Shown: positions 19,011 to 50,458 of the stretch, in pieces
How positions within the stretch are numbered: position 1 is the stretch's first letter
Layout of the letters: every line of letters starts with the position of its first letter
NCBI GenBank assembly: GCA_026992355.1
Contig: JALXAE010000178.1
Span: 1 to 53,638 of the forward strand
DNA length: 53,638 nt
Direction of reading: 5' to 3'
Source of the DNA: Syntrophobacterales bacterium
Lineage (GTDB): Bacteria; Desulfobacterota; Syntrophobacteria; Syntrophobacterales; Thermodesulforhabdaceae
Notes under the pieces: generated by a model
Seen by the model: the letters and a program-made list of their open reading frames with translations, nothing else
Told to the model about the DNA's origin: nothing
Databases searched by the model: none
Made by a program: the position numbers and the translations under genes

Positions 19011-20987
19011 TCAGTATGCCAGTCTACCTAAAGATCGCATAATTAGGGTAAACCCCATTCCGAGCATGCCCATGATGCCCATTCCGCAGGAAAAACCAGC
19101 AAGGAGGACAGGGGCATATTGTCGCCATTTTATGCCGTATTTCTTAATAAAATAGTGCCTTCCCAGCAAAGCCCCGATTACTTCTAGGAAAATGCCGTGA
19201 GGTGTTGTTTGCCCCAGACCTCTCGTAACACCATAAATCAACATTATTGGAAGATTCAACGCTGCGAGAATCCAGTATGTGACTAAACCCAGCCCTAGTC
19301 CCCAGAACATGTATGAAAGCTTAAAAGCCTGAAAAAAAGGAGAGTTTCCCTCTAACGTAGCGCTTTGTAACAACAACGTATTTAAAGCTTGTAAATGCCA
19401 TAACTCCTGGGCATAGGGATACTGGTTAGAGGGAATGGGGGCAAGTCGCCATAGATATTGCGAAAAAAGCAGACTGGAAATCATAACAACCGGAAAGACA
19501 AATATTTCCGCTTTTATAATGCTTCTAAAGCTTGTTCCTGTGAGCTCTATTTCTCTGAATTTAACGGTAGCCTTTCCGTAATTATGAATAGGAATAGGCG
19601 CATACCATATTCCAATGCCATGATAACCAAAAAACTTCGAGGCCATTATAAAACTTGCTTCTCTTACCATTGGAAGGCTTACAAACTGGCCAGCAACCCC
19701 TTCCATCCTGGCGGATATATAGGAAATAATGGGCGTGTAAATAAATCCGTAAGCCACCAGAAAAATAATGGGAAAACCCGGAACCAAATAATTACAGAGA
19801 ATAATATAAGCTGTAGTAGAGGCTATATATATACCAATGGCTATCCATATATTGAAATCACCTCTTCCAGGTGGAGGCGAAAACAGTTTTTTTAGTTTTT
19901 CTCTAAAAGAAATAGCCTTTGAACTCCGGAACATTGTCATAACGTGAATTATACCTGCTATCGCAATAGCCAGACCAAGTCCGATACCGAAACTCATGTA
20001 AAAGTCAAAATTATTGGCAAAGACCGTGTCCACAGTTTCCATTCCCTTGTGCCAGTGGAACAATATACCATGTTTGTAAAGAATAGGATTTGCTATAAGA
20101 GTTATAATAAAACCGATCAGGCCGCCGATAACTGCCCAGAAGGGTAAAACCATCCCCAGAAAAAGCAGACCCAGATCCAGTTGAATTCCCGTGGCAACTG
20201 CAGGCAAAAAATTTTCCGTATAATGGGTAAGTTCAATCCAGGGAATGGGAAGTATACGTATCGGCTCGGACAAAATCACACCAGAAGCAGAAGGCAGCAA
20301 AACATATAAAGCCCCAAAGGCAAGTCCTATCATCCCACCTATAGAAAAAACTCTCCATCTCCAGCTTGTTTCTTCCCTGTTTGCTGACTCGGTAAGAGCC
20401 ATTGTCCCCAAAGCACCAACAGGTGCCATCGGGAATGGAAGCTTTTCAACATCCGATGTTAATCTGTACAGAGCGTACCCCAATCCAAAGTGATCAACAG
20501 CCTGTATTAATTCAAAGCCAACCATAAGAAGTATAGGAACAAGCCAATCCCGGTGGAAAAAAGACCTTTCAAGATAAGAGACAGAATCTGGAGGCGGGGC
20601 AACCCAATGGGGAATCAGGTGTGTTAAGCCAAGAACTCTGGCTGCTTCAGACTGAACCAAATACTGATTCCACAAAAGACCGGAAAAAGGGGATGAAAGA
20701 GCAGCACCAGCCATGTAATACAAAACAAAAATTTCCTGCTGCTTAAGTCTTGTGTATGCCCGTTTCGCAACTTCTGCAAACAAAATGATCGTAACCCATC
20801 GAGCCGCTGGTCCTATCCCGGTGCCAATTACGAGGTTCAAATACATGGAGCCGGGCATCATTACAAAACCAATAAAAATTGCCCCAATTACCGACTTCCA
20901 GCCAAAACCTTCTTCAAAATGATCAGGAGGTGGGAGTAAATCTCTATATTCTTTGAGTTCTCTATCTTCCTTCACAACAGCCCTCAA
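19011..20987 (-). CDS. 658-aa polytopic membrane protein B of the ABC module (possibly OPT-like or DUF-type transporter)
   Basis: There are more than 12 hydrophobic segments. The N-terminal pattern GAIFIGFVMMPGSMYLNLVIGTGIGPAARWVTIILFAEVAKR is reminiscent of OPT-superfamily N-termini (weak, by eye). A 15-nt gap separates it from the upstream gene. Confidence 0.6.
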   Translation of the reverse strand: MRAVVKEDRELKEYRDLLPPPDHFEEGFGWKSVIGAIFIGFVMMPGSMYLNLVIGTGIGPAARWVTIILFAEVAKRAYTRLKQQEIFVLYYMAGAALSSPFSGLLWNQYLVQSEAARVLGLTHLIPHWVAPPPDSVSYLERSFFHRDWLVPILLMVGFELIQAVDHFGLGYALYRLTSDVEKLPFPMAPVGALGTMALTESANREETSWRWRVFSIGGMIGLAFGALYVLLPSASGVILSEPIRILPIPWIELTHYTENFLPAVATGIQLDLGLLFLGMVLPFWAVIGGLIGFIITLIANPILYKHGILFHWHKGMETVDTVFANNFDFYMSFGIGLGLAIAIAGIIHVMTMFRSSKAISFREKLKKLFSPPPGRGDFNIWIAIGIYIASTTAYIILCNYLVPGFPIIFLVAYGFIYTPIISYISARMEGVAGQFVSLPMVREASFIMASKFFGYHGIGIWYAPIPIHNYGKATVKFREIELTGTSFRSIIKAEIFVFPVVMISSLLFSQYLWRLAPIPSNQYPYAQELWHLQALNTLLLQSATLEGNSPFFQAFKLSYMFWGLGLGLVTYWILAALNLPIMLIYGVTRGLGQTTPHGIFLEVIGALLGRHYFIKKYGIKWRQYAPVLLAGFSCGMGIMGMLGMGFTLIMRSLGRLAY

Positions 20988-21002: not shown

Positions 21003-22979
21003 TTATAGAGGAAACACATGGTAGGTCATAGGAACATAAAAGCCCACAATTAACCATGCCACCGCCATTATAGTATCACCAACTATTAACCCAATGAAAA
21101 ACCACCTGACCGTCCTGTATGCATTTATTCCGCCATAATGGACGATAAGTGCATTGCTCAACCACCCAAGAAAAAAAGAGAACCATAAAATTCTCATGGC
21201 TGAGCTGTAAGCCAATAAATATCCAATTGGGTGGAGAGGCCACCACACGAATTGGTAGTATCCAAAGATTAATAAGGAGGTTACAAAAGCCCCAATCCCG
21301 GTAAAAATCATGCTCCATTTTTTGGGTTCTTCCGGATGTTGAAGTAACCTTATGGCACTTTCATGAACTCGAGTAACCGTATCAACAGCCCATGTATCTG
21401 GCAAAGAAAAAATGCCATATTTGTAAGAAAGAACCATCATAGAAATGATGGATATTAAAACAGTACACAACAGAGCCAGCAGTATTCCTGTTACAAATCT
21501 TCTCTTTTCTTTTGCAGATTCAGAAAGAGCGGAAGCATGAAATAATGACGGCATTAAGGATTCTCTAAAATCTACAAAGGCCATTTTCTGGACAACGGCG
21601 CCGATGTATATGGCCGATGTTGAAAATATGTTTGTGGGCAAAAAGGCTAGAAAGCCGTCAGAAGGCGCTGCAGTAAGAGTATAATAAGGCAGCCCTCCCT
21701 GACATATGAGCCTAGCAGATACCAGTTGAATCATAAAACAAACGACCAAAAATGCAGCAGCAACATGAAAACTTATTCCCATAAAAACTGTCCAGGTAAC
21801 TGAGCCCAGAATACCCACAAGAGCAATGCGGAGCGATGTAACGGGATGTAACATTCCGGAATATTCATAATCATAGGACCGTTTTTTAAAGAATGATTTA
21901 AAAGTAATAAGCAGGTGTTCTCTGGCAAGCCATATCAAAAATATTGCAAACACTCCATAAGCCCCTACTGCTTGCATTTCCTCCACTTTGGATATTACGG
22001 GACCGAACGTGGTGCCCAAGGCAGCCTCAGGTATCTTCAGACCGAAAATGCTTAAAAAACCTGGCATCAAGGCTCCAAGAACAAAAAAAAGCCACAGGCT
22101 AAGAGAAACCTGTCGAGTTGTAAGATAAGCAAACCCTATAAAAGCCGGGTAGATGTAGATTTTAGCTTTGTAAAAACCCTTAAGTAATCCTTCCTTGGGA
22201 ACGAAAGGCTGAGCAAGAATTAATGTCGGTATTTGAGGGACGCCCGGGAAAAAATTGTGCAAGCCATTTAAGGTATGCAAGAACACAGGAATGAAAAAAC
22301 CTACAATGAAATAAGGACTTTTCAGGAATCCCCAGAGTGTTCCCTTGGTTGCATGTTCAGTAAACAAAACAGGAACCCTTAGCAGAGGGAAATTCATTCT
22401 TTCGTTTTCTATCCATTGGTGAGAAAAAAGACCAGTGATTCCGAGAACAGTGAGAAATACAAATCCAATTAAAGATAACCAGACTCCCAGAGGTACAATC
22501 CATTTGTCCCAAGGAATGGTTTTAATTATGTCAAAAACACTGGAGGTATATCCTGTTTCAAGACCATATAATGTGGTTCTTATAATGCTTGAGTCAGTGG
22601 GAAAAAGATAAGGCTTTACAGTGCTCATAATCTGCTGGATACCTTCAACTCCTGTCATTTTCATCCAACCGGGAATGACCATGTTTACAATGAATGTTCG
22701 AGCAAAACCGGTATAAGAAAGGGTTGCAGATATTCCTGACATTATCCAGATAAGCAATATCTCACTTCCGGATAAACATAACCGAAGAGAAATATGTCGA
22801 ACTAATGGATTCCAAAGAATGGTAAAGAAAATAAGAAAGAAAAATGCAATTAACGGAAAATGCCCACCGCCCAGAGGGGAATTTTGCCATAGGATGTTAT
22901 TCCATGGAGTTATCCACGCAACCACCGAAGACAATAAGACACTTACAACCAACACGGATATGCGAATAGTACTATTCAC
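21003..22979 (-). CDS. 658-aa polytopic membrane protein A of the ABC module (uncharacterised family)
   Basis: There are more than 12 hydrophobic segments and a C-terminal WWPLHPIGYLL...YGGINAYRTVRWFFIGLIVGD. Its start overlaps the stop of the 1600-aa gene by 8 nt. Confidence 0.6.
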   Translation of the reverse strand: MNSTIRISVLVVSVLLSSVVAWITPWNNILWQNSPLGGGHFPLIAFFFLIFFTILWNPLVRHISLRLCLSGSEILLIWIMSGISATLSYTGFARTFIVNMVIPGWMKMTGVEGIQQIMSTVKPYLFPTDSSIIRTTLYGLETGYTSSVFDIIKTIPWDKWIVPLGVWLSLIGFVFLTVLGITGLFSHQWIENERMNFPLLRVPVLFTEHATKGTLWGFLKSPYFIVGFFIPVFLHTLNGLHNFFPGVPQIPTLILAQPFVPKEGLLKGFYKAKIYIYPAFIGFAYLTTRQVSLSLWLFFVLGALMPGFLSIFGLKIPEAALGTTFGPVISKVEEMQAVGAYGVFAIFLIWLAREHLLITFKSFFKKRSYDYEYSGMLHPVTSLRIALVGILGSVTWTVFMGISFHVAAAFLVVCFMIQLVSARLICQGGLPYYTLTAAPSDGFLAFLPTNIFSTSAIYIGAVVQKMAFVDFRESLMPSLFHASALSESAKEKRRFVTGILLALLCTVLISIISMMVLSYKYGIFSLPDTWAVDTVTRVHESAIRLLQHPEEPKKWSMIFTGIGAFVTSLLIFGYYQFVWWPLHPIGYLLAYSSAMRILWFSFFLGWLSNALIVHYGGINAYRTVRWFFIGLIVGDTIMAVAWLIVGFYVPMTYHVFPL

Positions 22980-25900
22980 CAGAGATTTTCTCCCGCATTC
23001 GTATACTTTCCTTCATTTCGGGGCTCAACGTATGCCACTGCAGTAGCTGTTTTCTAATTGCTCGGACAAAGCTCCTATTGGCTCTATGCCAAGACCTGAC
23101 TTCTCCATGCAGTCGCAACAATCTTAGAGTTATGTGTACGTACCCCGGTTCTTCCAGATCAGGGCAGCAATAGAAATAAACCCGTTCTTTTAAACCGAAA
23201 TCAAACGGTGCCAACCATACACTAGTCTGAATCAAAAAACATTGTGGAAATCTCGTTATTCCTTCTCTGTGGTCTTCTTGTATCTCTGACCAGTCAGCCC
23301 ATCCGGTTTGAACTCCATCAGACATAAATGTTCCATGAGCCACATCCTTGTGAAGGTTTATATAATCGGCCAGGAACAATAACACCGCCACACGATCTGA
23401 CTCAGGAAACAAAAAAGGAAGATCTACCACCAAAACATCACCATCGGGTTCGGGCAAGTCCCAGGTTTTTTCCACATCTGGCATCGCTATATCCACGGCA
23501 ATCCTAGCGGGATAAAGAGAAGCAACGAACACTACTCCAAATACCATGATCATACTTGCAATACTGGATAGTGATGAATAATTGAAAGTTAAAGATGAGA
23601 AGAAGGGAAGATTGCCAAAATAATGGGCCGTAAACTGAGCAATTAAATAACCGGCAACACACGACATAACAGCGAAAGATAAAGCCTCCATGATGAACAG
23701 CATACCAACGTGGTGAGGAGCAAGACCCACGCTTGTATATACGGAAATTTCCTTCTTCCTTTCATGAACCTGTCCTATTAACGTATTCAGGCAAATCAAA
23801 ATGACTATCAATATAGGTATTATAAGATTTGTTACGCCCTGATATCTAACTGTTACGAGGGCACTATGATACCATACTTTTTGATTCTTACCTATGTAGA
23901 AGGAATGGGCATACCACGTCCCCAGCCTCTGAGCAAGAATGTCTATATCGGGGGAGTTTTTCGACTTTAGCACATAAATAGCCTTAATTTTTCCACCAAG
24001 CGCAAGACAGGTTTCAAAAGGAATCAAAACAGTTGACGAAGGCGTAGCATAATAAAAGCGTTCAATAATCGGCAGAATTTCTTCACCCGACTCCATCGCC
24101 TCAACCTCTACCTCAGTTAATTCCTCTTCCGGATGAGCTTCCAAATAGGCAGGTGTAAAGGGTTTTCCATCAAGGTCCCTGAAGGCATTCATCTTTTCAT
24201 CATCAAAAATCCCAACAACATTAAATGGCATACCGAAAAGAAACACCTTTGGTGTAACAGCACTGACAGGATTCAATGTGATCCTCAGCTTTTTAGCAAG
24301 ACTTTGTGGAAGCAGGATTTCGTTACAGCACGATTTTTGAAGCCACCTACCCTGCACCAGAATTTTCTTCAACCGTTTTGGTGGATTTGAGCCAACACCC
24401 ATTACTCCCTCTAAGCCAACCGCTTTACCCCCGGAGTTTTCAATAAAGGTGATGATTCTTTTGTAAGGATCAACTCTTTCAATCCAGCTCTTTGAAAATA
24501 TGTCAGCATCCCCCCAAAAAATTGACTTTATTTCCCTCAAAGCAAAATCCGTGAGGGGTATCCACAAGGGATGATGAAGCAAAATCCCGTCATAAGGGGG
24601 ATTATCACCTATCTGGGTGTCCGTAACTTTTTGAAAGCTTTTTACACTGGTAAAGGACATTATCGTAAAAGTCAATATTATCAAGGTGATACAGGTAAGA
24701 GCAGTGCGTAATTTTCGCCTGTAAAGATTGGAAACCCCAATCGCAAGCCCCGCTCCAATTGCCTGGGAGGTTCGGATCTGTCCTATAGGTGCAACCCCTG
24801 TTTGGTACCACTTTGACTTCCTAAACGTTTCCATTTCGTGTTCAAAACGACCAAGGATAATGGATCCAACAAGGGTTGAAAGTCCAACAATAAAGAATGC
24901 AATAATAACCATGGTGGGACTATAAGTTAGTCTGAAAGCCGGGTGGATTGCGCGGATAATTAGTATCGTTATAATAAGAATTATAAAAAACGCAGCAATC
25001 TGCTTATAAATGTTTGTGAAGCAAAACAAATATCGTTCCATGCAATAGGCAAAAGGAACAAACAGAGCAATGAAAAAGATAACTCCGAAGAGAACGTCTT
25101 TCTGGGTGGATTCTATGTCATGATATATTTTGTTAAGATAGGCCCAGGATGAGATAATTTGTCTCCAGAAACCGCTATACTCACTCCTTGACAAGCTTTC
25201 TTCGGCTAAATTTATATTGTTTGAAGCTTCTTTGAAAAGTGATTCTATGTAATGATTTCTTATTCCAGTTAGCTTCAAATCGTTTAATCTAATTCCTATG
25301 ATATCCAAAGTATTTCTGGCAGAAATCAGGGGACCTAAAGAAATAACAGGCGGTTTTCCAATTAAAAAACCTTTTCCAGTTGGCTTTTTTGTTGAAGAAT
25401 TGAGAAGTAGAACATCTTTCGTAATGAGTGAATCAGCAAGTATAAGCTTAAAACGGGTACCGGGTTCCAAAAATACAGAAATGACTATTGTGTCCTTTCC
25501 ATCAATCCTGCTGTACCAGTATTTCATAGGGGTTGCATCTGTTCTGGCGTCCAAGAGCTTCACTTTAGTTACATAAGACAGTTTCCTGGGGTGAAATACT
25601 CCCAAGATATCTGTTTGCTCACACGGAAACATAATAAGCGTGGTATAAGCCGTATTGCCCTTTATTTTTATACGGTATCTATTCTTCCCAGTCTCTCGCT
25701 TATCGGTAGCCCACTTGATTCTCCCCGTCTTCTCGTCAATTCCATAGGGTTCCAGTATGAGCTTCTGGTATGAAACCTTTTTATTAGCAACCCCGTGCAG
25801 GTAAAAACGTCCATCCATGAAGACCATGCTTCTAAAAACATTCTCTCCCTGAAGGGCATTGACTATAGTTCCTGGTGCCGGTCTATCTGGAAAGAGTTCT

Positions 25901-27774
25901 CCCTGACGGATGAATTGAGCCGTCCCTTCCAGCGAAGCAATTCCTCTTATACCTTGCTTACAGGCTGAAACTATTGCAATGTCATCAAAAAGTTGTTTCA
26001 AAAATGGCATAAGAAAACGGTTTATTTTGACAAAGTTTACAGAATTCCAGTGTTCCCAGCTATCTTCGGGAGTCCCCCAGTAGGGGGGTGTGACTATCCT
26101 TGAAGAGAGACCAACGGCAGGTAAACCTCCGATAGATGTGACATCGCAGCAAGCACAATGTCCAGTTAACGGGCCAACAGGAGCTGAAGCTGCTTTCCCA
26201 CCACTGGGTTCCAGTAGATTTTCAACCTGAAAATTTTTAGCAACATCTTTTGCAATCCTTGACGCAATGTTCACGAAACGCCCAATTCTATAATATTTGG
26301 TAACCCGTTCCCTAAAAGGGAAGGAAGAACCCCTGTCATAAAACCTTAAAAATGGCGAATAGCTGGAAATATCTAAATCCATTACGAGAACTGGCTCAAA
26401 AATTCTTACTTCCGATCTAACCCTCATTGCCGATCTAATTACAGTCCATCTCTTTTTGAGCTCAGTCAGATATTCTTTTTCTCTTTCCAGTAACGAACCA
26501 AAAAAAGGAATTATCAGGCTAAATTCATCAGATTGCACTTCTTTAAAGGAATGTCTCCACGATATTATCCTGTATCGTCTGGCAAGCTCTGATTTAGCAG
26601 GATCAAAGGATTCATAAAACTGACTTCGTGTAAGATCATCAGCCTTGTTTTTTACACTGGCAAGCACAATAGGCCACAAGAATTGGTTGGCTTCGTCATT
26701 TTTTTTGAGAAAATCTATTATTAATCTATCCTTCTTTTTCAGGATTTTTTTCAGGAGCTTAATACGCTTGGTAGTAAGTTTAATCTGTTTTTTGAGATAT
26801 CTCTTTTCCTTGCGCAAATTTTTTGACGAAGAGGTAATAGCCCATACAAATTCTCTCATACCTGCAGCAGCGTAACCACTTCCTGCTGTGGCCACAAACA
26901 TAACGGATCTTCTGGGAGGATTCTTCGAAAGATATCTTGCCAGATTGAGTAACGTTAGAAGGGAAGTCGCTTCGTCCACTCCAGGAGACGCGTCCGGAAT
27001 GATCGATGTAGCATCGTAACGGGCTTCAACTATTACTAATTGCTCCCTCAAAGTTGGATCGGAACCTTCTATAAAACCGTAACAATTCCGAAGAAGAACA
27101 TTCTCCCAAAGGGCTCTGGATATTATCTTTCCCTCCAATCTTCTTTCCGTTATCAGCCTTCTTACAACGGCAGACTCACCAGGCGGCAACCAATACCGGG
27201 GAAATGCAACTGGTGCCGATGAAAACTTGCCAGTATATTCACCCGACGGATACCCTCTCCAACCCATGTATACAACGGCCTTTGCTCCATGCATGGCTGC
27301 ATAAAGCCAGGCCAAACCGGAATCAAGATCGAGAAAAACTATGCTGTCCTTAATTTTTCTATGATCAAAATCTTTCCACTCACCCTTGTCCAGGTAAATA
27401 CATGGACCAGTCAAACCTTCTGAGCTTGTATTCGAAAGATAAACCATGTTAGGCGTCCAAATTTTCAAGGGAAAACGTGACCCATTCAAATAGAGATAAG
27501 CTTGCTTAACTCTTGGTAAGGGAAGAAAAAAATATTGAACACCTACATTGGAGAGACCAATGCTTTCGAACTGATGCTTAAGATAATCAGCGATTTCGTG
27601 AGACGCCTTGGATCCTGCGGATCGGTTTTCATAACTCAATATATGCTGCAGGTCAGCAGGATTTAAAATCTCAGGACCTAATGGCTCAGGGGGAATTTCA
27701 GTCGCAGACAAAAATCGCGTACAAATAAAAAGAAACAAAACAATTACACAACACCAAAGAAGAGCGCGATTCAT
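22972..27774 (-). CDS. 1600-aa fusion protein: signal/anchor, degenerate M28 peptidase-like domain with PA insert and Lys-rich coiled coil, beta-rich region, 3 TM, FtsX/MacB-type permease (4 TM with ~270-aa ectodomain), 169-aa cytoplasmic tail
   Basis: PA-like segment: GPCIYLDKGEWKDFDHRKIKDSIVFLDL...GAKAVVYM. M28-like blocks: LVIVEARYDA, PGVDEATSLLTLLNLARYL, VMFVATAGSGYAAAGMREF, VMDLDISS, CCDVTSIGGLPAVGL and YWGTPEDSWEHWN. FtsX signature: NLYRRKLRTALTCITLIILTFTIMSF ... HERKKEISVYTSVGLAPHHVGMLFIMEALSF...SLYPARIAVDI. An ATGA overlap links it to the upstream ATPase gene. Confidence 0.75.
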   Translation of the reverse strand: MNRALLWCCVIVLFLFICTRFLSATEIPPEPLGPEILNPADLQHILSYENRSAGSKASHEIADYLKHQFESIGLSNVGVQYFFLPLPRVKQAYLYLNGSRFPLKIWTPNMVYLSNTSSEGLTGPCIYLDKGEWKDFDHRKIKDSIVFLDLDSGLAWLYAAMHGAKAVVYMGWRGYPSGEYTGKFSSAPVAFPRYWLPPGESAVVRRLITERRLEGKIISRALWENVLLRNCYGFIEGSDPTLREQLVIVEARYDATSIIPDASPGVDEATSLLTLLNLARYLSKNPPRRSVMFVATAGSGYAAAGMREFVWAITSSSKNLRKEKRYLKKQIKLTTKRIKLLKKILKKKDRLIIDFLKKNDEANQFLWPIVLASVKNKADDLTRSQFYESFDPAKSELARRYRIISWRHSFKEVQSDEFSLIIPFFGSLLEREKEYLTELKKRWTVIRSAMRVRSEVRIFEPVLVMDLDISSYSPFLRFYDRGSSFPFRERVTKYYRIGRFVNIASRIAKDVAKNFQVENLLEPSGGKAASAPVGPLTGHCACCDVTSIGGLPAVGLSSRIVTPPYWGTPEDSWEHWNSVNFVKINRFLMPFLKQLFDDIAIVSACKQGIRGIASLEGTAQFIRQGELFPDRPAPGTIVNALQGENVFRSMVFMDGRFYLHGVANKKVSYQKLILEPYGIDEKTGRIKWATDKRETGKNRYRIKIKGNTAYTTLIMFPCEQTDILGVFHPRKLSYVTKVKLLDARTDATPMKYWYSRIDGKDTIVISVFLEPGTRFKLILADSLITKDVLLLNSSTKKPTGKGFLIGKPPVISLGPLISARNTLDIIGIRLNDLKLTGIRNHYIESLFKEASNNINLAEESLSRSEYSGFWRQIISSWAYLNKIYHDIESTQKDVLFGVIFFIALFVPFAYCMERYLFCFTNIYKQIAAFFIILIITILIIRAIHPAFRLTYSPTMVIIAFFIVGLSTLVGSIILGRFEHEMETFRKSKWYQTGVAPIGQIRTSQAIGAGLAIGVSNLYRRKLRTALTCITLIILTFTIMSFTSVKSFQKVTDTQIGDNPPYDGILLHHPLWIPLTDFALREIKSIFWGDADIFSKSWIERVDPYKRIITFIENSGGKAVGLEGVMGVGSNPPKRLKKILVQGRWLQKSCCNEILLPQSLAKKLRITLNPVSAVTPKVFLFGMPFNVVGIFDDEKMNAFRDLDGKPFTPAYLEAHPEEELTEVEVEAMESGEEILPIIERFYYATPSSTVLIPFETCLALGGKIKAIYVLKSKNSPDIDILAQRLGTWYAHSFYIGKNQKVWYHSALVTVRYQGVTNLIIPILIVILICLNTLIGQVHERKKEISVYTSVGLAPHHVGMLFIMEALSFAVMSCVAGYLIAQFTAHYFGNLPFFSSLTFNYSSLSSIASMIMVFGVVFVASLYPARIAVDIAMPDVEKTWDLPEPDGDVLVVDLPFLFPESDRVAVLLFLADYINLHKDVAHGTFMSDGVQTGWADWSEIQEDHREGITRFPQCFLIQTSVWLAPFDFGLKERVYFYCCPDLEEPGYVHITLRLLRLHGEVRSWHRANRSFVRAIRKQLLQWHTLSPEMKESIRMREKISGE

Positions 27775-28499
27775 GCAACCTCACCAACAGACACTTTCAA
27801 TTTGTCTCGCGACTCAATTCGCTCTATCATACCGTCTCTTATCCAAACGACTCTGTCAGATACATCTATCATTTTTATGTCGTGAGTGGCCGATATAATT
27901 GTGACACCTCGTTCCCTGGACAAACTTTTTAAAAGCTTTATAATTTCCGCACCAGTCTTCAAGTCCAGATTGCCTGTGGGTTCATCGGCAAGAATAATGG
28001 CAGGATCATTCGCAAGCGCCCTTGCAATGGCCACACGCTGTTGCTGTCCACCGGAAAGCTCTGAAGGTCTATGCCACGCTCTCTCTTTTAATCCCACAAG
28101 TTCCAGAAGCATCATGCCCTTTTCCATATATTCATCTCTATGTACTCCAGCAAAAATCATGGGAAGCGTTACATTTTCTATGGCTGTCATCGCTTGAATA
28201 AGATTGAAGGTCTGGAAAATATATCCAATCTTGTGACATCGGAGCCACGCCAATTCGTAAGCATCCAGTTGCGAAACATCTACCTCATCGATGAATACCC
28301 GACCTTCTGATGGCTTGTCCAATGCACCTATCATATTAAACAAAGTGGTCTTACCCGATCCCGAAGGTCCCATTATGGAAATATATTCTCCCTGTGCGAT
28401 TTCCATCGAAATGCCTTTAAGAGCATCTACTCGATTATTTCCCATAACAAATGTCTTACGGACATTGTTCAATCGGACTACGAAATGTTCCCTTTTCAT
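27771..28499 (-). CDS. ABC transporter ATP-binding protein, MacB/LolD/FtsE-like
   Basis: Walker [11 protein letters not shown]-loop IFQTFNL, signature [15 protein letters not shown], Walker [14 protein letters not shown] and H-loop ATHD. Confidence 0.92.
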
Positions 28500-28513: not shown

Positions 28514-28654
28514 TCAATGAGTATCCCTAGATGCCTCAACTATTTCAAAGCATTCCAGACACAGAAACACCTGGTCAAAAGGTACAGCTTCGTCATTCCT
28601 TAATTCCTTACCACAGCTAGCACATTTTTTTCTTACGGATTCCTCCCTTTTCAT
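28514..28654 (-). CDS. 46-aa zinc-ribbon-like mini-protein (CxxC-x17-CxxC), not in the ORF track
   Basis: Translation is MKREESVRKKCASCGKELRNDEAVPFDQVFLCLECFEIVEASRDTH. Its ATG (28654-28652) overlaps the TGA (28653-28651) of the upstream FtsX gene as ATGA. GAGG lies 8 nt upstream, and the ORF ends 14 nt before the ATPase start. Confidence 0.5.
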   Translation of the reverse strand: MKREESVRKKCASCGKELRNDEAVPFDQVFLCLECFEIVEASRDTH

Positions 28655-29328
28655 ATCTCATGCCTCAAAGCTATAGCGGGTTCCATGCGCGCAGCCATCA
28701 CACAGGGATACAAAACGCCTAAAAGCGATAGAATCACAGAAATTATAAAGGAAACCCCAACGTTTTTCAGCATACTGACTACACTTATAAAGAAAAAAAC
28801 CTTTAAGCCCAGTTTAAATGCAAGAGAAATAAGGGCCAGCATTATCCCTAAAAAAGCTCCAGCAAGACTACCCGCAGTTCCCTGATAAAGGGATTCACAA
28901 AGGAAAATTTTTACTATGAAGGTATCCAACGCTCCCAGGCACTTCATTGTTCCTATTTCCCTAAACCTTTCTGTAACAGCCATTATTTGGGCATTGGTAA
29001 TCCCAACAAGACATACCAAGATAGCTAACATCAAAAGCCATATATCTTTGGCAGAGGCCCCAAAAACTCTGTGTCCACTTGAAAGACCCAATGGCTCGTA
29101 ACCGGCCAGTATTATCTTATGTCTGAGAATGTCACTGGCATGAGGCCAAATCGCATTCAGGATATCGAATGTCATAAGTGTATAAGAAAAAAAAGTTATG
29201 GCTAGCATGAGCGACAAAGTAGTTATAGCAACTCTCGTCCAGCGGATTTTTACAGACTGCCAGGCTATGCGCAGCACTTGATGCCATGGGAGAACAATCT
29301 GACGACTCAACTTACCGTGGTCAACCAT
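28651..29328 (-). CDS. Minimal FtsX-family ABC permease (4 TM, no large extracytoplasmic domain)
   Basis: The N-terminus IAWQSVKIRWTRVAITTLSLMLAITFF is the FtsX TM1 motif. FREIGTMKCLGALDTFIVKIFLCESL...VLYPCVMAARMEPAIALRHE is the FtsX domain. Only ~45 aa separate TM1 from TM2. Confidence 0.8.
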   Translation of the reverse strand: MVDHGKLSRQIVLPWHQVLRIAWQSVKIRWTRVAITTLSLMLAITFFSYTLMTFDILNAIWPHASDILRHKIILAGYEPLGLSSGHRVFGASAKDIWLLMLAILVCLVGITNAQIMAVTERFREIGTMKCLGALDTFIVKIFLCESLYQGTAGSLAGAFLGIMLALISLAFKLGLKVFFFISVVSMLKNVGVSFIISVILSLLGVLYPCVMAARMEPAIALRHEI

Positions 29329-29334
29329 GATTCA

Positions 29335-30477
29335 TTAACTCCACCGCTTGTTGAAATAGACTTCAACTATTTCCTTTGTTCTTCTAGCTCCATCAATATT
29401 TACACCAACTTTGAAAGCTTCCTTTTTCCCTGCAAGCTCACGGACTCCTAAAGCAATCTTTCGTGGATCAAAACTATCCAGCACCTTGACAACTCCCATT
29501 TTTTCAAACCTTGTGGCCCTCAATCTCTGCTCTCTATTTTGAGAAAAAGGAAAAACTAAACCGGGAGTCCTGGTTGCCAGCAAATCCATCATTGTATTAT
29601 AACCAGCCATGCTCACAGACAAATGAGCACTAACTAATTCTTTAATAAAATCGAGAGAAAACTCTTTGACATGGACATTCGGTCTACCTTGTGCAAGATC
29701 TTTTATTCTTTTCAAATCAGGGTCAGGAATAAATATACCGGGAAATATTTCAATTCTGTATTCGTTACCTAACAGGTCAGACGCCAGTATGCTGGCTTCA
29801 AGAAGCTCAGAACCAACCCGACCCCCACCATGGCTAACAACTATTCTACGGTAATTCTCAGGAAGTGCTACACCGCCTTTTCCGGAGCATTTTCTTACAA
29901 CATAGCCAGTATACTCTACTGGAACCTTTACTTCAGCCAAGCTTCCAAAGGTTTCATCAAGAGTAATCACGCTCGGATCAGAATGGACAAGAACAAGATC
30001 AAAAAAACTGTTCAAAGTGTCTACGACTCTTCTCTCATACTTCTTTTGGTCTGATTTTTCCACCAGAATATCCCGTACGCTACAAACTACCATCGTATCA
30101 GATTTTGCTCTGGCATACTCAAGAACAGGAATTAGCTCAAACCTGAACTTCTTTCTTCCAAAAGGAAAGAGTTCTATTATAAAAATGTCTGGGTTAAAAT
30201 TAATAAATAAACTCAAAAGCTTCCTTTTTCTGCTCTGCTTTATTTTCTCAAGCAAAGATTGCTCTACCGTAAACGATTTGAACTCCCCGTCCATTTCTAG
30301 AGGCTCAAGAGAAAAAAATTTGATGTGTGTGAAAGCATCGATTTTATCCGTAATCTTTTTACCCCCTTCCACGAAAAGAACTTCATGAGGAAAAAAGGCT
30401 TTGGCTATCTCAAGACTTCTGAAAAAATGCCCTACCCCGAGAACATGCTGACAGTATTGTAAGATCTTCATAGTCAC
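29335..30477 (-). CDS. Glycosyltransferase, MurG/GT28-like fold (COG4671-type predicted glycosyltransferase)
   Basis: The N-terminus ILQYCQHVLGVGHFFRSLEIAKAF is a Gly-rich loop paralogous to ORF 33945-35156 (YSHDTYGLGHIRRTLAIAKSV). The C-terminal half contains SMAGYNTMMDL. The track start is GTG 30477; an alternative ATG is at 30471. Confidence 0.65.
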   Translation of the reverse strand: MTMKILQYCQHVLGVGHFFRSLEIAKAFFPHEVLFVEGGKKITDKIDAFTHIKFFSLEPLEMDGEFKSFTVEQSLLEKIKQSRKRKLLSLFINFNPDIFIIELFPFGRKKFRFELIPVLEYARAKSDTMVVCSVRDILVEKSDQKKYERRVVDTLNSFFDLVLVHSDPSVITLDETFGSLAEVKVPVEYTGYVVRKCSGKGGVALPENYRRIVVSHGGGRVGSELLEASILASDLLGNEYRIEIFPGIFIPDPDLKRIKDLAQGRPNVHVKEFSLDFIKELVSAHLSVSMAGYNTMMDLLATRTPGLVFPFSQNREQRLRATRFEKMGVVKVLDSFDPRKIALGVRELAGKKEAFKVGVNIDGARRTKEIVEVYFNKRWS

Positions 30478-31088
30478 TATTTTTTACAATAAAGAGCTAC
30501 CGTTCTTTTTCCGGAAACATCAGGATCCAATAGGGAAAAACCGTCATAGGAAGGAAGAATGCCAGAAAAACCGTAAACCATATAGTAACTCCCTATCTTC
30601 GCCTTATCCCTCAACATTTCGGCGTAAACGTCATGAAGTGTTATATAGGTGTAAAAAATATCAACATCTTGCATGGTGACACCCGTTTTTTCTTCTATAG
30701 TCCTATGAGTGTTCTCCGATAAGGAATCCCCAAGTAGTACGCATAAACCTGAAGGGAGAGGTAAGAGATTGTTTTGCCGGAGGAAATGCTCTATCTGTTT
30801 TTTGGAATATAGGTATTCATCGTATATAAACTCTTCAACTTCAATCCCTATCGCCCATCGGCAAAAATAAGACATCAACATGCAGACTCGCCCATCTCCA
30901 CACCCAAGATCAAGGAATATCGTGCTATCGGGAACAACTATTCTCCTGGACACAAGTTCATTTACCACATCAAATAGAATGCCTAAATCACTCGTTTTCC
31001 TGTAACCGCTATTTCCAACATGCCCCTTTTTACGTTTATCAAAATACGATGCTATTGTTTTAGCAGTCTTTAACCTTAAATCTTTCAT
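30477..31088 (-). CDS. Class I SAM-dependent methyltransferase
   Basis: Motif I is IFLDLGCGDGRV, and the size (203 aa) fits a Rossmann-type methyltransferase. Confidence 0.65.
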   Translation of the reverse strand: MKDLRLKTAKTIASYFDKRKKGHVGNSGYRKTSDLGILFDVVNELVSRRIVVPDSTIFLDLGCGDGRVCMLMSYFCRWAIGIEVEEFIYDEYLYSKKQIEHFLRQNNLLPLPSGLCVLLGDSLSENTHRTIEEKTGVTMQDVDIFYTYITLHDVYAEMLRDKAKIGSYYMVYGFSGILPSYDGFSLLDPDVSGKRTVALYCKK

Positions 31089-31590
31089 GATGAAGCTTTT
31101 CTAAAAATTTCAAAATCTTCTCATGTAATAAAAATGTCAAATGAATTTCTTCGCCATACACCGACTGAAGCTTGATAACTTTTGCCTGACCTAAATGCTT
31201 ATACAATCGTTCACAAAGATAATTGACGCATATCGTATGTCTCAGCCCCAAGACACACCCTCTCTCTCCAAGAAAATAGCAACCTGACGGGTCAAAGCGA
31301 TTTCCTGGTAATTTAACACCCAAGAGTAAATTGGCCAAAAGTATTGCTACATCATAATAGTTTTCTATTCCCTTTCCACAGCAGCTACCACCTTCCTCTG
31401 TGTCACACTTCATGCACACACTATCAATTCCAAATTCACGGGATATTTGCTGGCTTCTTTCTGCGGCATCAATTGCCCTTAATAGAAGGTCTCCTGCAAA
31501 ATTTTTTAATTCATCTTCATGGAGCATAAAAATGTTTTCCGCTGACTTTATCGCCTCTTCAATGTAGTTTGTAGACAAATCAGAAGACAT
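31060..31590 (-). CDS. Cysteine-cluster protein (YkgJ/UPF0153-like putative Fe-S or Zn domain)
   Basis: CMKCDTEEGGSCCGKG (CxxC...CC) plus CYFLGERGC...CVNYLC. Function unknown. Confidence 0.5.
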   Translation of the reverse strand: MSSDLSTNYIEEAIKSAENIFMLHEDELKNFAGDLLLRAIDAAERSQQISREFGIDSVCMKCDTEEGGSCCGKGIENYYDVAILLANLLLGVKLPGNRFDPSGCYFLGERGCVLGLRHTICVNYLCERLYKHLGQAKVIKLQSVYGEEIHLTFLLHEKILKFLEKLHHERFKVKDC

Positions 31591-32705
31591 CAGTTTTTCA
31601 CCATTTCCTCAATATAGCTCACCAATACTCCCAAATTTTTATGGGCATTGCGTCTATTTTCAACGTACTCCCTAGCTCTGTTTCCCATTTCGCGCATCAT
31701 ATCGTACTGCCGACACAAACGTGCTACAGCTTCGGCGTAGGCTACAACATTTCTTGATTTCACGAGTATCCCCGTTTTACCATCCTCTATAACCTGCTTT
31801 ACGCCTGGACCTTCCAGAGCAACAACAGGAATGCCACAAGACTGAGCTTCCAAGTACACCATCCCAAGGGATTCCCCTATGCCCGGAAACACGAAGAGAT
31901 CTGCTGCTGAATAATATTTGTACAAATGCCGTCGTTCCACTTCTCCTATAAAAATTACGCTACTACCCAGAAGTCTCGTTGCAATCTGCCTAACCTTGAA
32001 TTCCAAAGGACCCGACCCTATTATCATCAGCTTAAAGGGAAACTCCTTTTTGATAAGACTCAGAGACTGAAGTAGGAATTGCATGCTTACCCATTTGACA
32101 TCCCGTCTGAACCTCGCAACTGTAATCAACACTAAATCTTCTGGGGCTATATTGACTTTCGAGCGAATTACTTCTCTCCATTTAGCGCTAAATCTAAAAT
32201 GCTCAGGATAAATACCCGGAGGGATATACATTACCTTCTCTTTAGGAACTATTCTTAAAAGGTCATTAATGTCACAATAGTTGTTTAGAAAAATCATGTC
32301 AGCCTTTTTCAGTGCAATGGTGTTCAACAAATAACCAAGCTTTGTTTTAGCCCTTTTTTTCCTTTTGGTGCTGTACATGGTTTGAAACATAACAAACTTT
32401 ATATTGCCCACATATTGGGATATCCACCACCCCAAAATATCTGGCGATTTATAATAAGAATGATAGGTCAACCATATATCAGGTCGAAAATCACGAAAAA
32501 TTTTTAAAGCATTAACAGAAGCTACTGGAAGTTGCAATAGCTTACGCCCATCAAGCCAGAACCATCGGGATCTAAATGAAGACATTTCCCGACATTTGTG
32601 ACCTTTTATCGAAAATGCAGTAATTAATTGTTCCGAAATAGTTCTGTCACCGGAAGGCGTTTGATAGACTAGGGGCTTATTAGGAAGGTAGTAACCAACT
32701 TTCAT
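31590..32705 (-). CDS. Glycosyltransferase family 4 (GT-B, group 1)
   Basis: C-terminal GT1 motif: FVFPGIGESLGMVYLEAQSCGIPVVALEGPGVKQVIEDGKTGILV. Confidence 0.8.
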   Translation of the reverse strand: MKVGYYLPNKPLVYQTPSGDRTISEQLITAFSIKGHKCREMSSFRSRWFWLDGRKLLQLPVASVNALKIFRDFRPDIWLTYHSYYKSPDILGWWISQYVGNIKFVMFQTMYSTKRKKRAKTKLGYLLNTIALKKADMIFLNNYCDINDLLRIVPKEKVMYIPPGIYPEHFRFSAKWREVIRSKVNIAPEDLVLITVARFRRDVKWVSMQFLLQSLSLIKKEFPFKLMIIGSGPLEFKVRQIATRLLGSSVIFIGEVERRHLYKYYSAADLFVFPGIGESLGMVYLEAQSCGIPVVALEGPGVKQVIEDGKTGILVKSRNVVAYAEAVARLCRQYDMMREMGNRAREYVENRRNAHKNLGVLVSYIEEMVKN

Positions 32706-33955
32706 GAAAGCTGTATAGCATTTTGCATAATAGTATATAGCCTATCCGCCCAAATTCGCCTGTCAAATGAATCTTCCACTTTCTGCCTTGCACGGACAAT
32801 TAGTGAACGGACGCTTGAATCACTTACGTTTGACAACACTCTTTGAATGGAGTTTGCAAGAAGTAAGGGCTCTTCAGGAGGTACAAGAAACCCTGTTTTC
32901 TCATTTTCGACAGCCTCTGGAATTGCAGAAACTGTTGTGGAAACAACCGGGATTCCAACAGCCATTGCTTCCAGTATTACATTCGGAAGGCCATCTCTGT
33001 CACCATTTTTTGCAATCTTACAGGCAAGAACAAAGCAATGGGAAGTTCTGTAGAGCTTAATAACTTCATCTTGTGTAAGGGTACCCAGAAATTTCGTCTG
33101 GTTACTTAAACCAAGGACATGACTCATTTTTAATATTCGCAAACTGTCTTCTCCATCACCTGCGTGTAAAAATTCAAAATCAAGCCCTCGATTTTTTAAT
33201 ATCTTTAACGCCTTCAATAAAATATCATATCCTTTTTTTTCAACAAGCCGCCCCACGGACAAGATACGATAAGGGGGAGCAGGCGGAAAAGAGGCTTCAT
33301 TAAATCTAAACATCGAAAGATCTATGCCATGATAAACAACATGAATTGGAGTCCTAATGCTACCGGCAACTTTCGAAAGGTATCTTTTATTGTATTTCGT
33401 ACATGTTACGACAAACTTCGCTCGTCTTATCTTTCGCCTGAGCTGAGGAACCTCAGATGTGTAAATATCTTTTGCGTGAGCAGTAAAACTAAAGGGAATC
33501 TTCATCAAATCGGCGGCAAACAGAGCAACAGACGTAGGAGTATGACAGAAGTGAGCATGAATGTGGATAATTGGTCTGTTAAGGAGCCTTTTCTGGCAAA
33601 TAAAACCGGCCTGCAAAAAGTGCCGTAAGGTTGCTCCTGTTCGCCTTTCAATAGCTCTTATGGAGGCCTGCAAACCAACGTTCAAAAATCTGAAAGGAAT
33701 TTTAAGGAAAAGCTTTCCATTTGCATAAAGTAGATCCTTTCCAGCGGAATGTACATATTCGGGTACATAGAGCACAGGAGCTTTAATATCTTTTACAAAG
33801 CTATGGGCAAAGCTTTCTCTTGGTTTCCTAAGTGAATAAATCTCTAAAGGAATTCCTTTCTTTTCTAATTCTAATATCTCTCCACTGATGAAAGTTTCGG
33901 AAATTCTGGGATATCCCTTGAGGAGCATTCCCAGTCTGGGAAAATTAGCATTCAA
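32702..33955 (-). CDS. Glycosyltransferase family 4 (WcaL-like, GT-B group 1)
   Basis: GT1 motif: FVLACKIAKNGDRDGLPNVILEAMAVGIPVVSTTVSAIPEAVENEKTGFLV. It is linked to the next gene by an ATGA overlap. Confidence 0.8.
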   Translation of the reverse strand: MNANFPRLGMLLKGYPRISETFISGEILELEKKGIPLEIYSLRKPRESFAHSFVKDIKAPVLYVPEYVHSAGKDLLYANGKLFLKIPFRFLNVGLQASIRAIERRTGATLRHFLQAGFICQKRLLNRPIIHIHAHFCHTPTSVALFAADLMKIPFSFTAHAKDIYTSEVPQLRRKIRRAKFVVTCTKYNKRYLSKVAGSIRTPIHVVYHGIDLSMFRFNEASFPPAPPYRILSVGRLVEKKGYDILLKALKILKNRGLDFEFLHAGDGEDSLRILKMSHVLGLSNQTKFLGTLTQDEVIKLYRTSHCFVLACKIAKNGDRDGLPNVILEAMAVGIPVVSTTVSAIPEAVENEKTGFLVPPEEPLLLANSIQRVLSNVSDSSVRSLIVRARQKVEDSFDRRIWADRLYTIMQNAIQLS

Positions 33956-35156
33956 CTTGAGCCTCCCTATGTCCTAAAACCAAGCGTTCTCGTATGATCT
34001 CAAAAGCCGTAAAAGGAAAATCCTCCATAAGTCGAGCTTTAAACCTTCTTTCTTCAAGCATCCTCAAAAGAACCTTCCTTAAAACCATGGGCGACAATTC
34101 ATCTGGCCTAATAAATTCGCAGAAACCAAGCCTTGCAAGAATCTGAGCCCGGATGAGCTGTTCTTTCCGCGGGACTGTTCTTGGTACAATGATACAGGGT
34201 TTCCTTTGAGAAAATATTTCACAAACAGTGTTATAGCCACCCATACTTATCACAACATCCGACAAGCCTATTACCGCTTCCATCAACCTGTGAAAACGAA
34301 TGGTTATCCATCCGAGCCTGGATGCTCTCCTCTCTATCTCCGCAAACTTCGCCGTTCCTAAAAAGGGTCCCGTGACTAAAAGAGCGATAAAATGCGCCCC
34401 CGCATCCTGCTCGGATTCAAAGGCCTTTAAAAAAGTATTGATTATTGGATAACCGTCTCCTCCACCTCCAGTGGTTACAAGCACAATTGGCTTTTGGGTA
34501 TTTATGCCAATTTCTCTCCTGACCTTAGCTATGTCATTCCTGGTAGGAACATATCTAGGTATATAACCGGTAAAATAAACCTTTTGGGATATGTCATCCG
34601 AGATTTTGTATTCTTTGATTGGATCATAGTATTCCCTGACACCGTACACCCAGATCTCATCATACAGTTCCCTCATAGCGCCATAGACATCTTTATCTCT
34701 CCATTCCCTTATGGTTTCCTCCGCATCATCCATAATATCTCTAAGTCCCAATACTGTCTTACACGACTTTAAGCATCTCTTAATCCACCCAAGAGTCTGA
34801 ACTACTTCCTTTTTGAGACCTAGCGGGGCTTTATCAACCACAAAATAATCTGGCAAAAAAGATCTTGCAGTAGCAAGGATTATGGCTTCTCTTATTTTTA
34901 GAACCTGAGTTGCATCCAGTTTCATCGATAGAGGAAGGTATTCCTCATTGGTTATCTTTATCATGCCAGGAATACGAACGAAATCTACATTTTGAGGAAT
35001 AGCAAAGCGTCCAACAAGGGGAGAGCCTGTTAGTATAAGTATGTTCGCCGGTATAGAACGTACACTCTTTGCTATCGCAAGAGTGCGTCGAATGTGGCCC
35101 AGGCCATAGGTGTCATGAGAATACATTAAAATTTTTAAAGGCCTTCCAACTCCCAA
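33945..35156 (-). CDS. Glycosyltransferase, MurG/GT28-like fold (COG4671-type), paralogue of 29335-30477
   Basis: KILMYSHDTYGLGHIRRTLAIAKSV at the N-terminus, and SMGGYNTVCEI in the C-terminal half. TTG start at 35156 with GGAG 8 nt upstream. Confidence 0.65.
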   Translation of the reverse strand: MGVGRPLKILMYSHDTYGLGHIRRTLAIAKSVRSIPANILILTGSPLVGRFAIPQNVDFVRIPGMIKITNEEYLPLSMKLDATQVLKIREAIILATARSFLPDYFVVDKAPLGLKKEVVQTLGWIKRCLKSCKTVLGLRDIMDDAEETIREWRDKDVYGAMRELYDEIWVYGVREYYDPIKEYKISDDISQKVYFTGYIPRYVPTRNDIAKVRREIGINTQKPIVLVTTGGGGDGYPIINTFLKAFESEQDAGAHFIALLVTGPFLGTAKFAEIERRASRLGWITIRFHRLMEAVIGLSDVVISMGGYNTVCEIFSQRKPCIIVPRTVPRKEQLIRAQILARLGFCEFIRPDELSPMVLRKVLLRMLEERRFKARLMEDFPFTAFEIIRERLVLGHREAQVEC

Positions 35157-50427: not shown

Positions 50428-50458
50428 TAGCTCCACATTCTCTGGCAAAAATAAAAAA

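Follow-up and report, generated by a model that had tools for sequence, protein, structure and literature searches.

A PA-M28 peptidase-like ectodomain without the canonical zinc site, fused to an FtsX/MacB-type permease in a Syntrophobacterales bacterium

What does a peptidase-like ectodomain do on an ATP-binding cassette (ABC) permease, and can it still be an enzyme? The question is raised by contig JALXAE010000178.1 (assembly GCA_026992355.1) of a Syntrophobacterales bacterium, of which a window of 53,638 nucleotides was analyzed. The open reading frame (ORF) at 22972-27774 on the minus strand of this window translates into a protein of 1600 amino acids (aa), and a sequence-only reading had described the span 25970-27700, which corresponds to residues ~25-602, as an M28/PA peptidase-like ectodomain with its metal-binding and catalytic His and Glu positions replaced. 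We are highly confident that the protein is a homologue of PA-domain M28 aminopeptidases that lost the canonical site and is fused to a permease, and that its gene belongs to a conserved cluster. That the M28/PA module works by binding or scaffolding, as analogy with known systems suggests, has roughly even chances, and the explanation as a whole (homology, loss of the site, an operon, and a noncatalytic binding or scaffolding module driven by an ATPase) is held with moderate confidence.

The gene and its parts are laid out as follows, with the basis of each assignment in parentheses.

22972-27774, minus strand: whole gene, encoding a PA-M28-like ectodomain, a beta-rich domain, three extra transmembrane (TM) helices, a four-TM FtsX/MacB-type permease, and a cytoplasmic C-terminal domain (ORF translation, full-length orthologues).
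27691-27774, minus strand: N-terminal signal peptide or anchor, residues 1-28 (hydrophobic segment; predicted helix at residues 2-24).
27475-27657, minus strand: M28 N-terminal lobe with the motif ENRSAGS..ADYL, residues 40-100 (aligned to 2ek8, YwaD, and canonical M28 peptidases; predicted local distance difference test score, or pLDDT, of 81-94).
27085-27474, minus strand: PA domain inserted in the M28 fold, residues 101-230 (family profile against 2ek8 and YwaD, hhalign, and Foldseek matches to the transferrin receptor, or TfR, GCPII, and PaAP).
26833-27084, minus strand: M28 core with the former ligand blocks R252, D254, D267, S299, and G300, residues 231-314 (PF04389 at 232-298; alignments to 1amp and canonical M28 peptidases).
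26401-26832, minus strand: Lys-rich helical insert between the EE helix and the Asp179 strand, residues 315-458 (alignment, insert lengths, predicted helices).
25945-26400, minus strand: second half of the M28 core, residues 459-610 (family columns, weak collinear M28 matches, Foldseek; presumed ligand equivalence).
25345-25944, minus strand: beta-rich post-M28 domain, residues 611-810 (regional identity of 0.48-0.53; low-confidence model).
24835-25119, minus strand: three extra TM helices joining the ectodomain to the permease, residues 886-980 (hydropathy; the top regional identity, 0.66).
23485-24711, minus strand: FtsX/MacB-type module consisting of TM1, a periplasmic domain of ~260 aa, and TM2-4, residues 1022-1430 (Pfam FtsX, PDB matches, hydropathy).
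22975-23484, minus strand: conserved cytoplasmic C-terminal domain, residues 1431-1600 (family alignments).

By hydropathy, the ectodomain reaches approximately residue 885, and the hydrophobic segment at residues 1-28 would place it outside the cytoplasm. An AlphaFold2 (AF2) model of residues 1-880 has a mean pLDDT of 66.5, with values of 80-94 in the M28/PA core.

Residues ~40-610 are homologous to PA-domain M28 aminopeptidases. For the window protein by itself, the Pfam model PF04389 is marginal (22.8-24.4 bits against a cutoff of 21.3, residues 232-298 only), a Pfam scan returned no PA match and a Nicastrin score below the cutoff, and the best hit of a single-sequence phmmer search against the PDB was a nonsignificant one to the transferrin receptor (E = 0.08). 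Such single-sequence searches are too weak to decide, and profiles are therefore needed. A nine-sequence ectodomain profile matched 2ek8 (E = 2.5e-22) and YwaD/BSAP (E = 1.4e-19) over profile positions 29-318, which include the PA region, and also matched the Vibrio aminopeptidase 1amp (5e-8), nicalin (3e-7), the transferrin receptor (3e-6), and nicastrin (0.05); eight of the nine family members pass the Pfam M28 model, and two match Pfam PA (best E of 2.5e-5). Compared by hhalign with ten canonical M28 peptidases, a 140-sequence family alignment gave a probability of 99.9 (E = 1.6e-34), again covering the PA region. Foldseek searches with the AF2 model returned 2ek8 (3.5e-19), BSAP, TfR1, PaAP, and GCPII, all with a probability of 1.00, and the TM-scores, normalized by target length, were 0.54-0.62 for bacterial PA-M28 enzymes (~0.6 for BSAP), with alignments spanning 569-598 columns against aminopeptidases of 407-412 residues. 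Taken alone, the Pfam score of 22.8 bits over 67 residues and the phmmer result would be compatible with a chance resemblance and no real relationship, but high significance and collinearity over M28 and PA are common to the profile, profile-profile, and fold comparisons, which refutes this alternative and leaves it vanishingly improbable.

The same three comparisons establish the M28/PA-like block order that the sequence-only reading had recognized, and the strings on which it relied lie where it placed them (ARYDA at 251-255, PGVDEATS at 264-271, FVATAGSGYAAAGMREF at 293-309, VMDLDISS at 464-471, CCDV at 542-545, and a Lys-rich run from residue 318). The PA fold (residues ~100-230 by profile alignment and hhalign) sits in the M28 domain as it does in 2ek8, YwaD, TfR, and PSMA. 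A parallel had also been drawn to TfR and PSMA, with which the AF2 model does share its fold in the Foldseek comparison, but the closest sequence relatives are the bacterial PA-M28 proteins 2ek8 and YwaD rather than the TfR/PSMA subfamily. The protein also falls outside M28B, the TfR/PSMA-GCPII type: TfR and GCPII score below the bacterial PA-M28 enzymes, and whereas the helical dimerization domain of TfR and PSMA follows the protease-like domain, the helical module of the window protein lies inside it. The proteins closest by both profile and fold, 2ek8 from Aneurinibacillus AM-1, YwaD/BSAP (6hc6) from B. subtilis, and PaAP from P. aeruginosa, have the same order of N-lobe, PA domain, and core. 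The bacterial PA-M28 aminopeptidases are soluble di-zinc enzymes with the full H-D-E-D-H set and a catalytic Glu; unlike them, the window protein has His97, Glu151, Glu152, and His256 replaced, carries a helical module of ~150 aa, and is fused to a seven-TM permease.

In the numbering of the Vibrio aminopeptidase, which we use for the ligand columns, the co-catalytic zinc ligands of M28 peptidases are His97, Asp117, Glu152, Asp179, and His256, and Glu151 is the general base. Residue-level alignments to 1amp and canonical M28 peptidases equate R252 with His97, D254 with Asp99, D267 with Asp117, S299 with Glu151, and G300 with Glu152, in exact agreement with the assignments made earlier for the HxD, GAxDxxSG, and EE blocks; in the profile alignment, too, R252, S299, and G300 occupy the His97, Glu151, and Glu152 columns. 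The five ligand positions of the window protein are R252, D267, G300, D468 (a presumed equivalence), and C543 (or V545), with only two Asp residues left, and the catalytic general base is replaced by S299. The proposed loss of both His ligands, the ligand Glu, and the catalytic Glu is borne out by these alignments and by the lack of a His in either distal register, and the conclusion that the window protein is without the canonical co-catalytic zinc site and catalytic base is well supported at the sequence level.

The sequence of the second half of the M28 core has diverged strongly: no significant sequence alignment covers the Asp179 and His256 columns (hhalign probability of 19% for the C-terminal half, and E = 0.5 for a sub-profile against the PDB), and the weak alignments recover only collinear G-x-P and YHTPxD-type motifs. 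D468 would be the Asp179 equivalent, judging from a family motif, L-D-[LI]-S, that ends a predicted strand. Farther on, the loop at 535-545 (PLTGHCACCDV) stands in for the distal Asp-His, and YWGTPED at 565-571 corresponds to the M28 "YHTPxD" motif. When the register is carried without gaps from G550-L-P552 (the G-x-P motif), with the canonical D-H lying 10 and 9 residues before the Pro (P0012, P0013, and P0016), the D-H falls on C542-C543 and not on D544-V545; D544 then occupies a family-conserved Glu column two residues after the old Asp255, and V545 occupies a hydrophobic column. Of the earlier statement that the distal SDH reads CDV, with His replaced by Val545, the absence of a His therefore stands, and the register is probably two residues off.

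At this distal site, an 8-residue insertion (PLTGHCAC) forms, with C543, a Cys/His-rich loop, PLTGHCACC (residues 535-543; 26146-26172, minus strand). A CC pair at 542-543 is found again in 12-16 of the 61 orthologues, every one from the lineage of the window protein, and the loop could form a disulfide or bind a metal through thiolates.

Replacement of the catalytic residues extends over the whole family. A word-indexed search recovered only eight relatives, and an exhaustive profile search yielded 1343 cluster representatives at E < 1e-30 (clusters at 50% identity). The best 150 of the 1343 representatives all score below 1e-147, match the entire ectodomain profile, and are mostly 1400-1700 aa long, giving a family of at least 150 clusters at this level of identity. 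Glu is missing from both EE columns in all 140 family representatives, so the substitutions are shared, and the complete canonical ligand set occurs in none of them. Among 158 family proteins, the His97 column is occupied mainly by Tyr (107), with His in 16 and Phe in 14; the Asp99 column is Asp in 157; the Asp117 column is Glu in 101 and Asp in 35; the Glu151 column is His in 145; the Glu152 column holds Phe, Gly, His, Cys, and others; and the Asp179 column is Asp in 141. The Asp255 column contains Asp in 90 and Glu in 22 of the 140 representatives, the His256 column contains Ser, Ala, Gly, or Cys, and a Glu two residues after Asp255 is present in 125 of the 158 proteins. The old site has the family consensus Y-D-E-H-F-D-D-[SAG]-E. 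Judged from these columns, the whole family has left M28 di-zinc chemistry, and most of its members keep a new polar constellation that includes a His.

Closer to the window protein, a genome scan identified 80 loci, almost all in Desulfobacterota, of which 61 encode full-length orthologues with 33-62% identity. The loci come from, among others, Syntrophobacteraceae metagenome-assembled genomes, Desulfacinum hydrothermale DSM 13146, Desulforhabdus sp. TSK, and Solidesulfovibrio aerotolerans DSM 16695, and the closest named relative is the Thermodesulforhabdus norvegica protein WP_093394367.1 (55% identity). Read at columns 252/254/267/299/300/468/542/543/544/545/571, a distant Desulfobacterota group (33-38% identity) is almost uniformly F-D-D-H-A-H-G-G-E-V-D, and 30 of the 61 orthologues (loci L031-L083) have His at both columns 299 and 468; the resulting conserved His/His/Asp/Asp/Glu combination is a candidate for a rebuilt mononuclear metal site. 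At the columns listed above, the sequence of the window protein and of L006, its nearest relative, is R-D-D-S-G-D/N-C-C-D-V-D. Throughout the lineage of the window protein (~24 orthologues with 40-62% identity), column 299 is Ser, Asn, Gly, Lys, or Tyr, never His, and column 468 is Asp, Asn, His, Tyr, Cys, or Arg. Over all 61 orthologues, the His97 column contains Phe, Pro, Arg, Ser, Ala, or Tyr and the His256 column contains Gly, Cys, Ser, or Thr. Residues that define the fold are conserved in at least 95% of the 61 orthologues (R51, G54, N109, W156, P192, D254, G265, D267, R289, G305, and D571), indicating purifying selection on the scaffold alongside drift of the former catalytic columns in the lineage of the window protein.

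These patterns bear on whether the module is instead a remodeled enzyme, with a rebuilt site (His at the Glu151 column, Asp or His at Asp179, Asp or Glu at Asp117, and Glu two residues after Asp255) that would hold a single metal and hydrolyze a substrate delivered by the ABC system. The prevalence in the family of His (145/158), Asp (141/158), and Glu (125/158) at the old site fits such a site, as do the 30 Desulfobacterota orthologues that combine both His residues with D254, D267, and E544, and YbbAP-TesA offers a precedent for an ABC system of this type that serves a hydrolase. In the window protein itself, however, the two His columns are occupied by Ser and Asp and the Tyr/Phe column by Arg, the two His columns of L006 read Ser and Asn, and the assortment of residues at these columns among the ~24 orthologues of the lineage yields no common catalytic set. 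A rebuilt active site is plausible for the His-bearing majority of the family and unlikely for the window protein, because both His residues are missing; as an account of the window protein, we consider the remodeled enzyme improbable. The window protein is credibly noncatalytic because His has been lost and the old columns vary in its Syntrophobacterales-like lineage.

The module differs from the peptidases in a further respect, the insert between the EE and NLD blocks. The spacing from G305 to D468 is 162 aa in the window protein, against a family median of 36. Comparison with eight distant homologues had made this insert look unique to the window protein, a reading that is ruled out by its presence, at 152-179 aa, in all 61 Desulfobacterota orthologues; inserts of at least 140 aa occur in about 27 of 140 family representatives. 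By alignment, it is a clade-level helical module rather than a peculiarity of the window gene. The AF2 model predicts long helices at 304-456 (317-456 within the insert), with low confidence at 379-414. The segment is 14% Lys, compared to 6% overall, and the hydrophobic occupancy of heptad a/d positions is at best 6 of 8, a modest regularity; of the earlier description of a Lys-rich coiled coil of ~150 aa, the Lys-rich insert and its position thus hold, and "helical" is a safer term for it than "coiled coil." Four residues of the insert (K318, K375, D379, and R402) are invariant in a nine-sequence alignment of the closest relatives, and K375 and R402 are also conserved in at least 95% of the 61 orthologues.

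Conservation is uneven along the protein, with regional identities to the window protein across the 61 orthologues of 0.21-0.51 for the M28/PA part, 0.48-0.53 for the post-M28 domain, and 0.58-0.66 for the TM regions. The ectodomain motifs with the highest conservation, GELFPDRPAPG (residues 625-635; 25870-25902, minus strand) and YWYSRIDG (residues 752-759; 25498-25521, minus strand), lie outside the M28 part. The former is nearly invariant in the 61 orthologues and is recognizable as "F.PD.P.PG" in family members that are 26% identical. The beta-rich domain that carries it, modeled mostly at a pLDDT of <60, may be the functional heart of the ectodomain. One could go farther and regard the M28/PA part as a vestigial spacer, a remnant that lends bulk or stability to a functional post-M28 ectodomain, in line with the lower identity of the M28/PA part and with the location of the invariant GELFPDxPAPG motif outside it. 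Yet the M28/PA part is maintained at full length, with its PA insert and with fold residues conserved at 95% or more, in the 61 orthologues and in at least 150 family clusters, and a 150-aa helical module with invariant residues was gained inside the domain and then retained, all of which makes a mere spacer very unlikely.

The portion C-terminal to the ectodomain belongs to an ABC permease, as the sequence-only reading had it, and the Pfam and PDB matches assign that permease to the FtsX/MacB type. Residues 1319-1426 match Pfam FtsX (E = 7.8e-13), and the permease part matches MacB (2e-6), YtrF, LolC, and LolF in the PDB. Hydropathy gives an FtsX-type topology (TM1 at 1022-1047, a loop at 1048-1308, and TM2-4 at 1309-1427) and predicts that the M28/PA ectodomain lies on the same side as the FtsX periplasmic domain. 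The cytoplasmic C-terminal domain, to which no family is assigned, occurs in every family member examined and carries the motifs WLAPFDFG (residues 1520-1527; 23194-23217, minus strand) and, near the end, RKQLLxW. The genes that accompany the large gene in the window are the following.

27771-28499, minus strand: MacB/LolD-type ABC ATPase, whose stop overlaps the start of the large gene (Pfam ABC_tran, E = 1.6e-34).
28651-29328, minus strand: short FtsX-type permease of 225 aa with four TM helices and without the large periplasmic domain (Pfam FtsX, hydropathy).
21003-22979, minus strand: polytopic membrane protein with DUF6785 and DUF6784, overlapping the stop of the large gene (Pfam, E = 7.8e-130 and 1.2e-31).
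19011-20987, minus strand: polytopic membrane protein of 658 aa, the most conserved gene of the cluster (no Pfam family match).
29335-35156, minus strand: GT28-like gene (29335-30477), two small ORFs (30477-31590), two GT4 genes (31590-32705 and 32702-33955), and a GT28 gene (33945-35156) (Pfam).

The ATPase scores ~1e-62 to 1e-67 against the NCBIfam models for MacB, LolD, DevA, and FtsE, all below their cutoffs, and the short FtsX protein matches LolF (2.5e-14), YtrF, MacB, LolE, and FtsX in the PDB. By these sequence similarities, the 1600-aa protein is the large permease of a type VII (MacB/LolCE/FtsX-like) ABC system, with the short FtsX protein as its probable heterodimer partner. The conservation of a 225-aa FtsX protein next to the ATPase suggests an unusual and strongly asymmetric heterodimer. 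ATP-driven mechanotransmission to the periplasmic parts would follow from family membership and the literature.

The cluster is conserved well beyond the window. Counting only loci with enough flanking sequence, the large gene is accompanied by the ATPase, always as its direct neighbor, at 67 of 67 loci, by the short FtsX gene at 54 of 57, by the DUF6785 gene at 52 of 59, and by the gene for the 658-aa protein at 46 of 53, and two of the glycosyltransferases are also syntenic, GT28b at 33 of 47 loci and GT4b at 20 of 42. Syntrophobacter fumaroxidans MPOB has the same six-gene cluster, and the S. fumaroxidans orthologue WP_083763896.1 is of the window type. Across Desulfobacterota, conservation is far stronger in the 658-aa protein (70-89% identity) and the ATPase (70-87%) than in the ectodomain (30-57%), and the 658-aa protein retains 44-47% identity in distant phyla. 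The two polytopic genes still adjoin family members that are only 26-29% identical and come from other phyla-level contexts, and the linkage is therefore ancient. A scan for operon promoters and terminators gave results at chance level.

What the two polytopic proteins do is pertinent to a further alternative, in which the dead fold is a periplasmic peptide receptor that binds peptide N termini and hands peptides to two OPT-like polytopic importers. In public sources, the 658-aa protein goes by the names "peptide transporter" or "OPT/YSL family transporter," a label not confirmed here, and one orthologue has a recorded PF03169 match; these names, this match, and the deep linkage of the M28-FtsX gene with both polytopic genes are what this alternative can draw on. 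However, searches of 18 members for OPT returned no Pfam or NCBIfam match at E <= 1-10, and neither the 658-aa protein nor the DUF6785 protein matched any PDB entry in single-sequence and profile searches. The AF2 model of the 658-aa protein is unusable (pLDDT of 39.5, from an alignment of 35 sequences that are all at least 74% identical), the similarity of the 658-aa and DUF6785 families by hhalign is faint (probability of 9.6%), and tblastn searches against plasmids gave no lead on the identity of the partners. Moreover, FtsEX-EnvC, LolCDE-LolA, MacAB-TolC, and YbbAP-TesA drive periplasmic or envelope processes, none of the four being described as an importer, and the co-located glycosyltransferases point to a glycoconjugate rather than to peptides. 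A peptide receptor is accordingly quite unlikely, and the syntenic upstream glycosyltransferases hint that the ABC system handles a glycoconjugate.

Under the noncatalytic explanation that we favor, a dimer of the ATPase and a heterodimer of the short and giant FtsX proteins would form a mechanotransmitting complex, in which the periplasmic parts would be set in motion by ATP binding and hydrolysis, the fused M28/PA module with its clade-specific helical insert among them. The module would be a noncatalytic binding or scaffolding element that holds or presents a ligand or partner protein in the periplasm, like the degenerate peptidase folds of EnvC, TfR, nicastrin, and nicalin. Candidates for what it binds are a peptide, a glycoconjugate made by the neighboring glycosyltransferases, or one of the two polytopic proteins.

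Several observations weigh against this explanation. Most of the family keeps a His at the Glu151 column, and many Desulfobacterota add a second at the Asp179 column, such that the old site of these relatives looks functional and is possibly catalytic. In the window protein, GHCACC (538-543) lies exactly at the former place of the distal His, and the equivalences for Asp179 and His256 come from nonsignificant alignments. The residues at D254, D267, D/E544, and D571 are either unchanged or acidic throughout the 61 orthologues (the Asp at 468 is not conserved), and these four acidic residues leave room for a residual cation site. Finally, the heterodimer and a complex with the DUF6785 and 658-aa proteins are deduced from synteny.

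The proposed noncatalytic module has partial counterparts among known systems. EnvC has a LytM domain devoid of catalytic residues, which FtsEX drives by way of a coiled coil (PMC7668044), and FtsEX-EnvC resembles the window system in pairing an FtsX-type mechanotransmitter with a catalytically empty periplasmic peptidase-fold module that has long helices (PMC7668044). EnvC, however, is a separate protein with an M23 fold that activates amidases, whereas the window module is a covalently fused M28 fold whose permease pair is probably heteromeric; the window system also has two polytopic partners, and no amidase gene was noted among the annotated neighbors of the operon. In YbbAP-TesA, molecules extracted by a type VII ABC system are presented to a hydrolase in the periplasm (PMC12646458). 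YbbAP-TesA and the Lol system combine a MacB-like permease and an ATPase with a periplasmic partner that receives extracted molecules (PMC12646458), and both FtsX genes of the window match LolC/E/F and MacB. Of these partners, TesA is an active SGNH hydrolase and LolA a carrier, whereas the window module is fused and without a canonical active site, and its operon adds glycosyltransferases, DUF6785, and the 658-aa membrane protein. TfR1 (relative to PSMA/GCPII), nicastrin, and nicalin, all matched by profile or model, are membrane ectodomains of the M28 fold with a PA domain that have lost their metal ligands and bind or scaffold, but they are eukaryotic single-pass proteins not fused to an ABC permease, and their sequence similarity is weaker than that of the bacterial enzymes.

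The fusion had been put forward as undescribed, and our literature searches agree, having found no paper on an M28 domain fused to an FtsX/MacB permease, nor any on DUF6785. In databases, the Desulfobacterota orthologues carry only the names "FtsX-like permease family protein," "DUF214," or "MacB-like core domain-containing protein," and one distant family member is named "M28 family peptidase." The components (a type VII ABC system and an M28 fold without the canonical site) are known; there is no description of their combination, of the operon, or of the graded loss of the site.

More tentatively, the family could constitute an unrecognized class of type VII machine, in which a permease of short and giant FtsX proteins would use ATP-driven mechanotransmission to move a covalently fused M28/PA module, its site rebuilt in most members and extinguished here, within an obligate complex with the DUF6785/6784 and 658-aa proteins that processes or exports an envelope glycoconjugate or peptide. 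We doubt this more than we believe it; if it is true, the lineage of the window protein is a natural "catalysis-off" variant, and the essential role of the module is mechanical or binding.

Two observations were made elsewhere in the window. Near its end, at 53534-53605 on the minus strand, the Rfam model of the group II catalytic intron (RF00029) is matched over all of its 77 positions with 41.8 bits, against a gathering score of 40. Two adjoining tRNA-Ser genes (anticodons GGA and CGA; 50459-50701, minus strand) overlap the called ORFs 48781-50508 and 50646-51233, the starts of which are therefore probably overcalled.

Type VII ABC systems (FtsEX, LolCDE, MacAB, and YbbAP) form a small, well-studied set in the envelope, and they transmit force instead of transporting substrates across the membrane. 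A widespread fusion of a peptidase fold to a permease, encoded beside two uncharacterized polytopic proteins, would add a new functional type to this set. The operon occurs in the cultured strains Syntrophobacter fumaroxidans MPOB, Thermodesulforhabdus norvegica, Desulfacinum hydrothermale, and Solidesulfovibrio aerotolerans, in which its role is directly testable. The family would also provide a bacterial counterpart to TfR, nicastrin, and nicalin, in which M28 folds have been turned into binding modules, and its natural series, from a canonical M28 ancestor through a rebuilt His site to a site without His, could show how an enzyme fold is repurposed.

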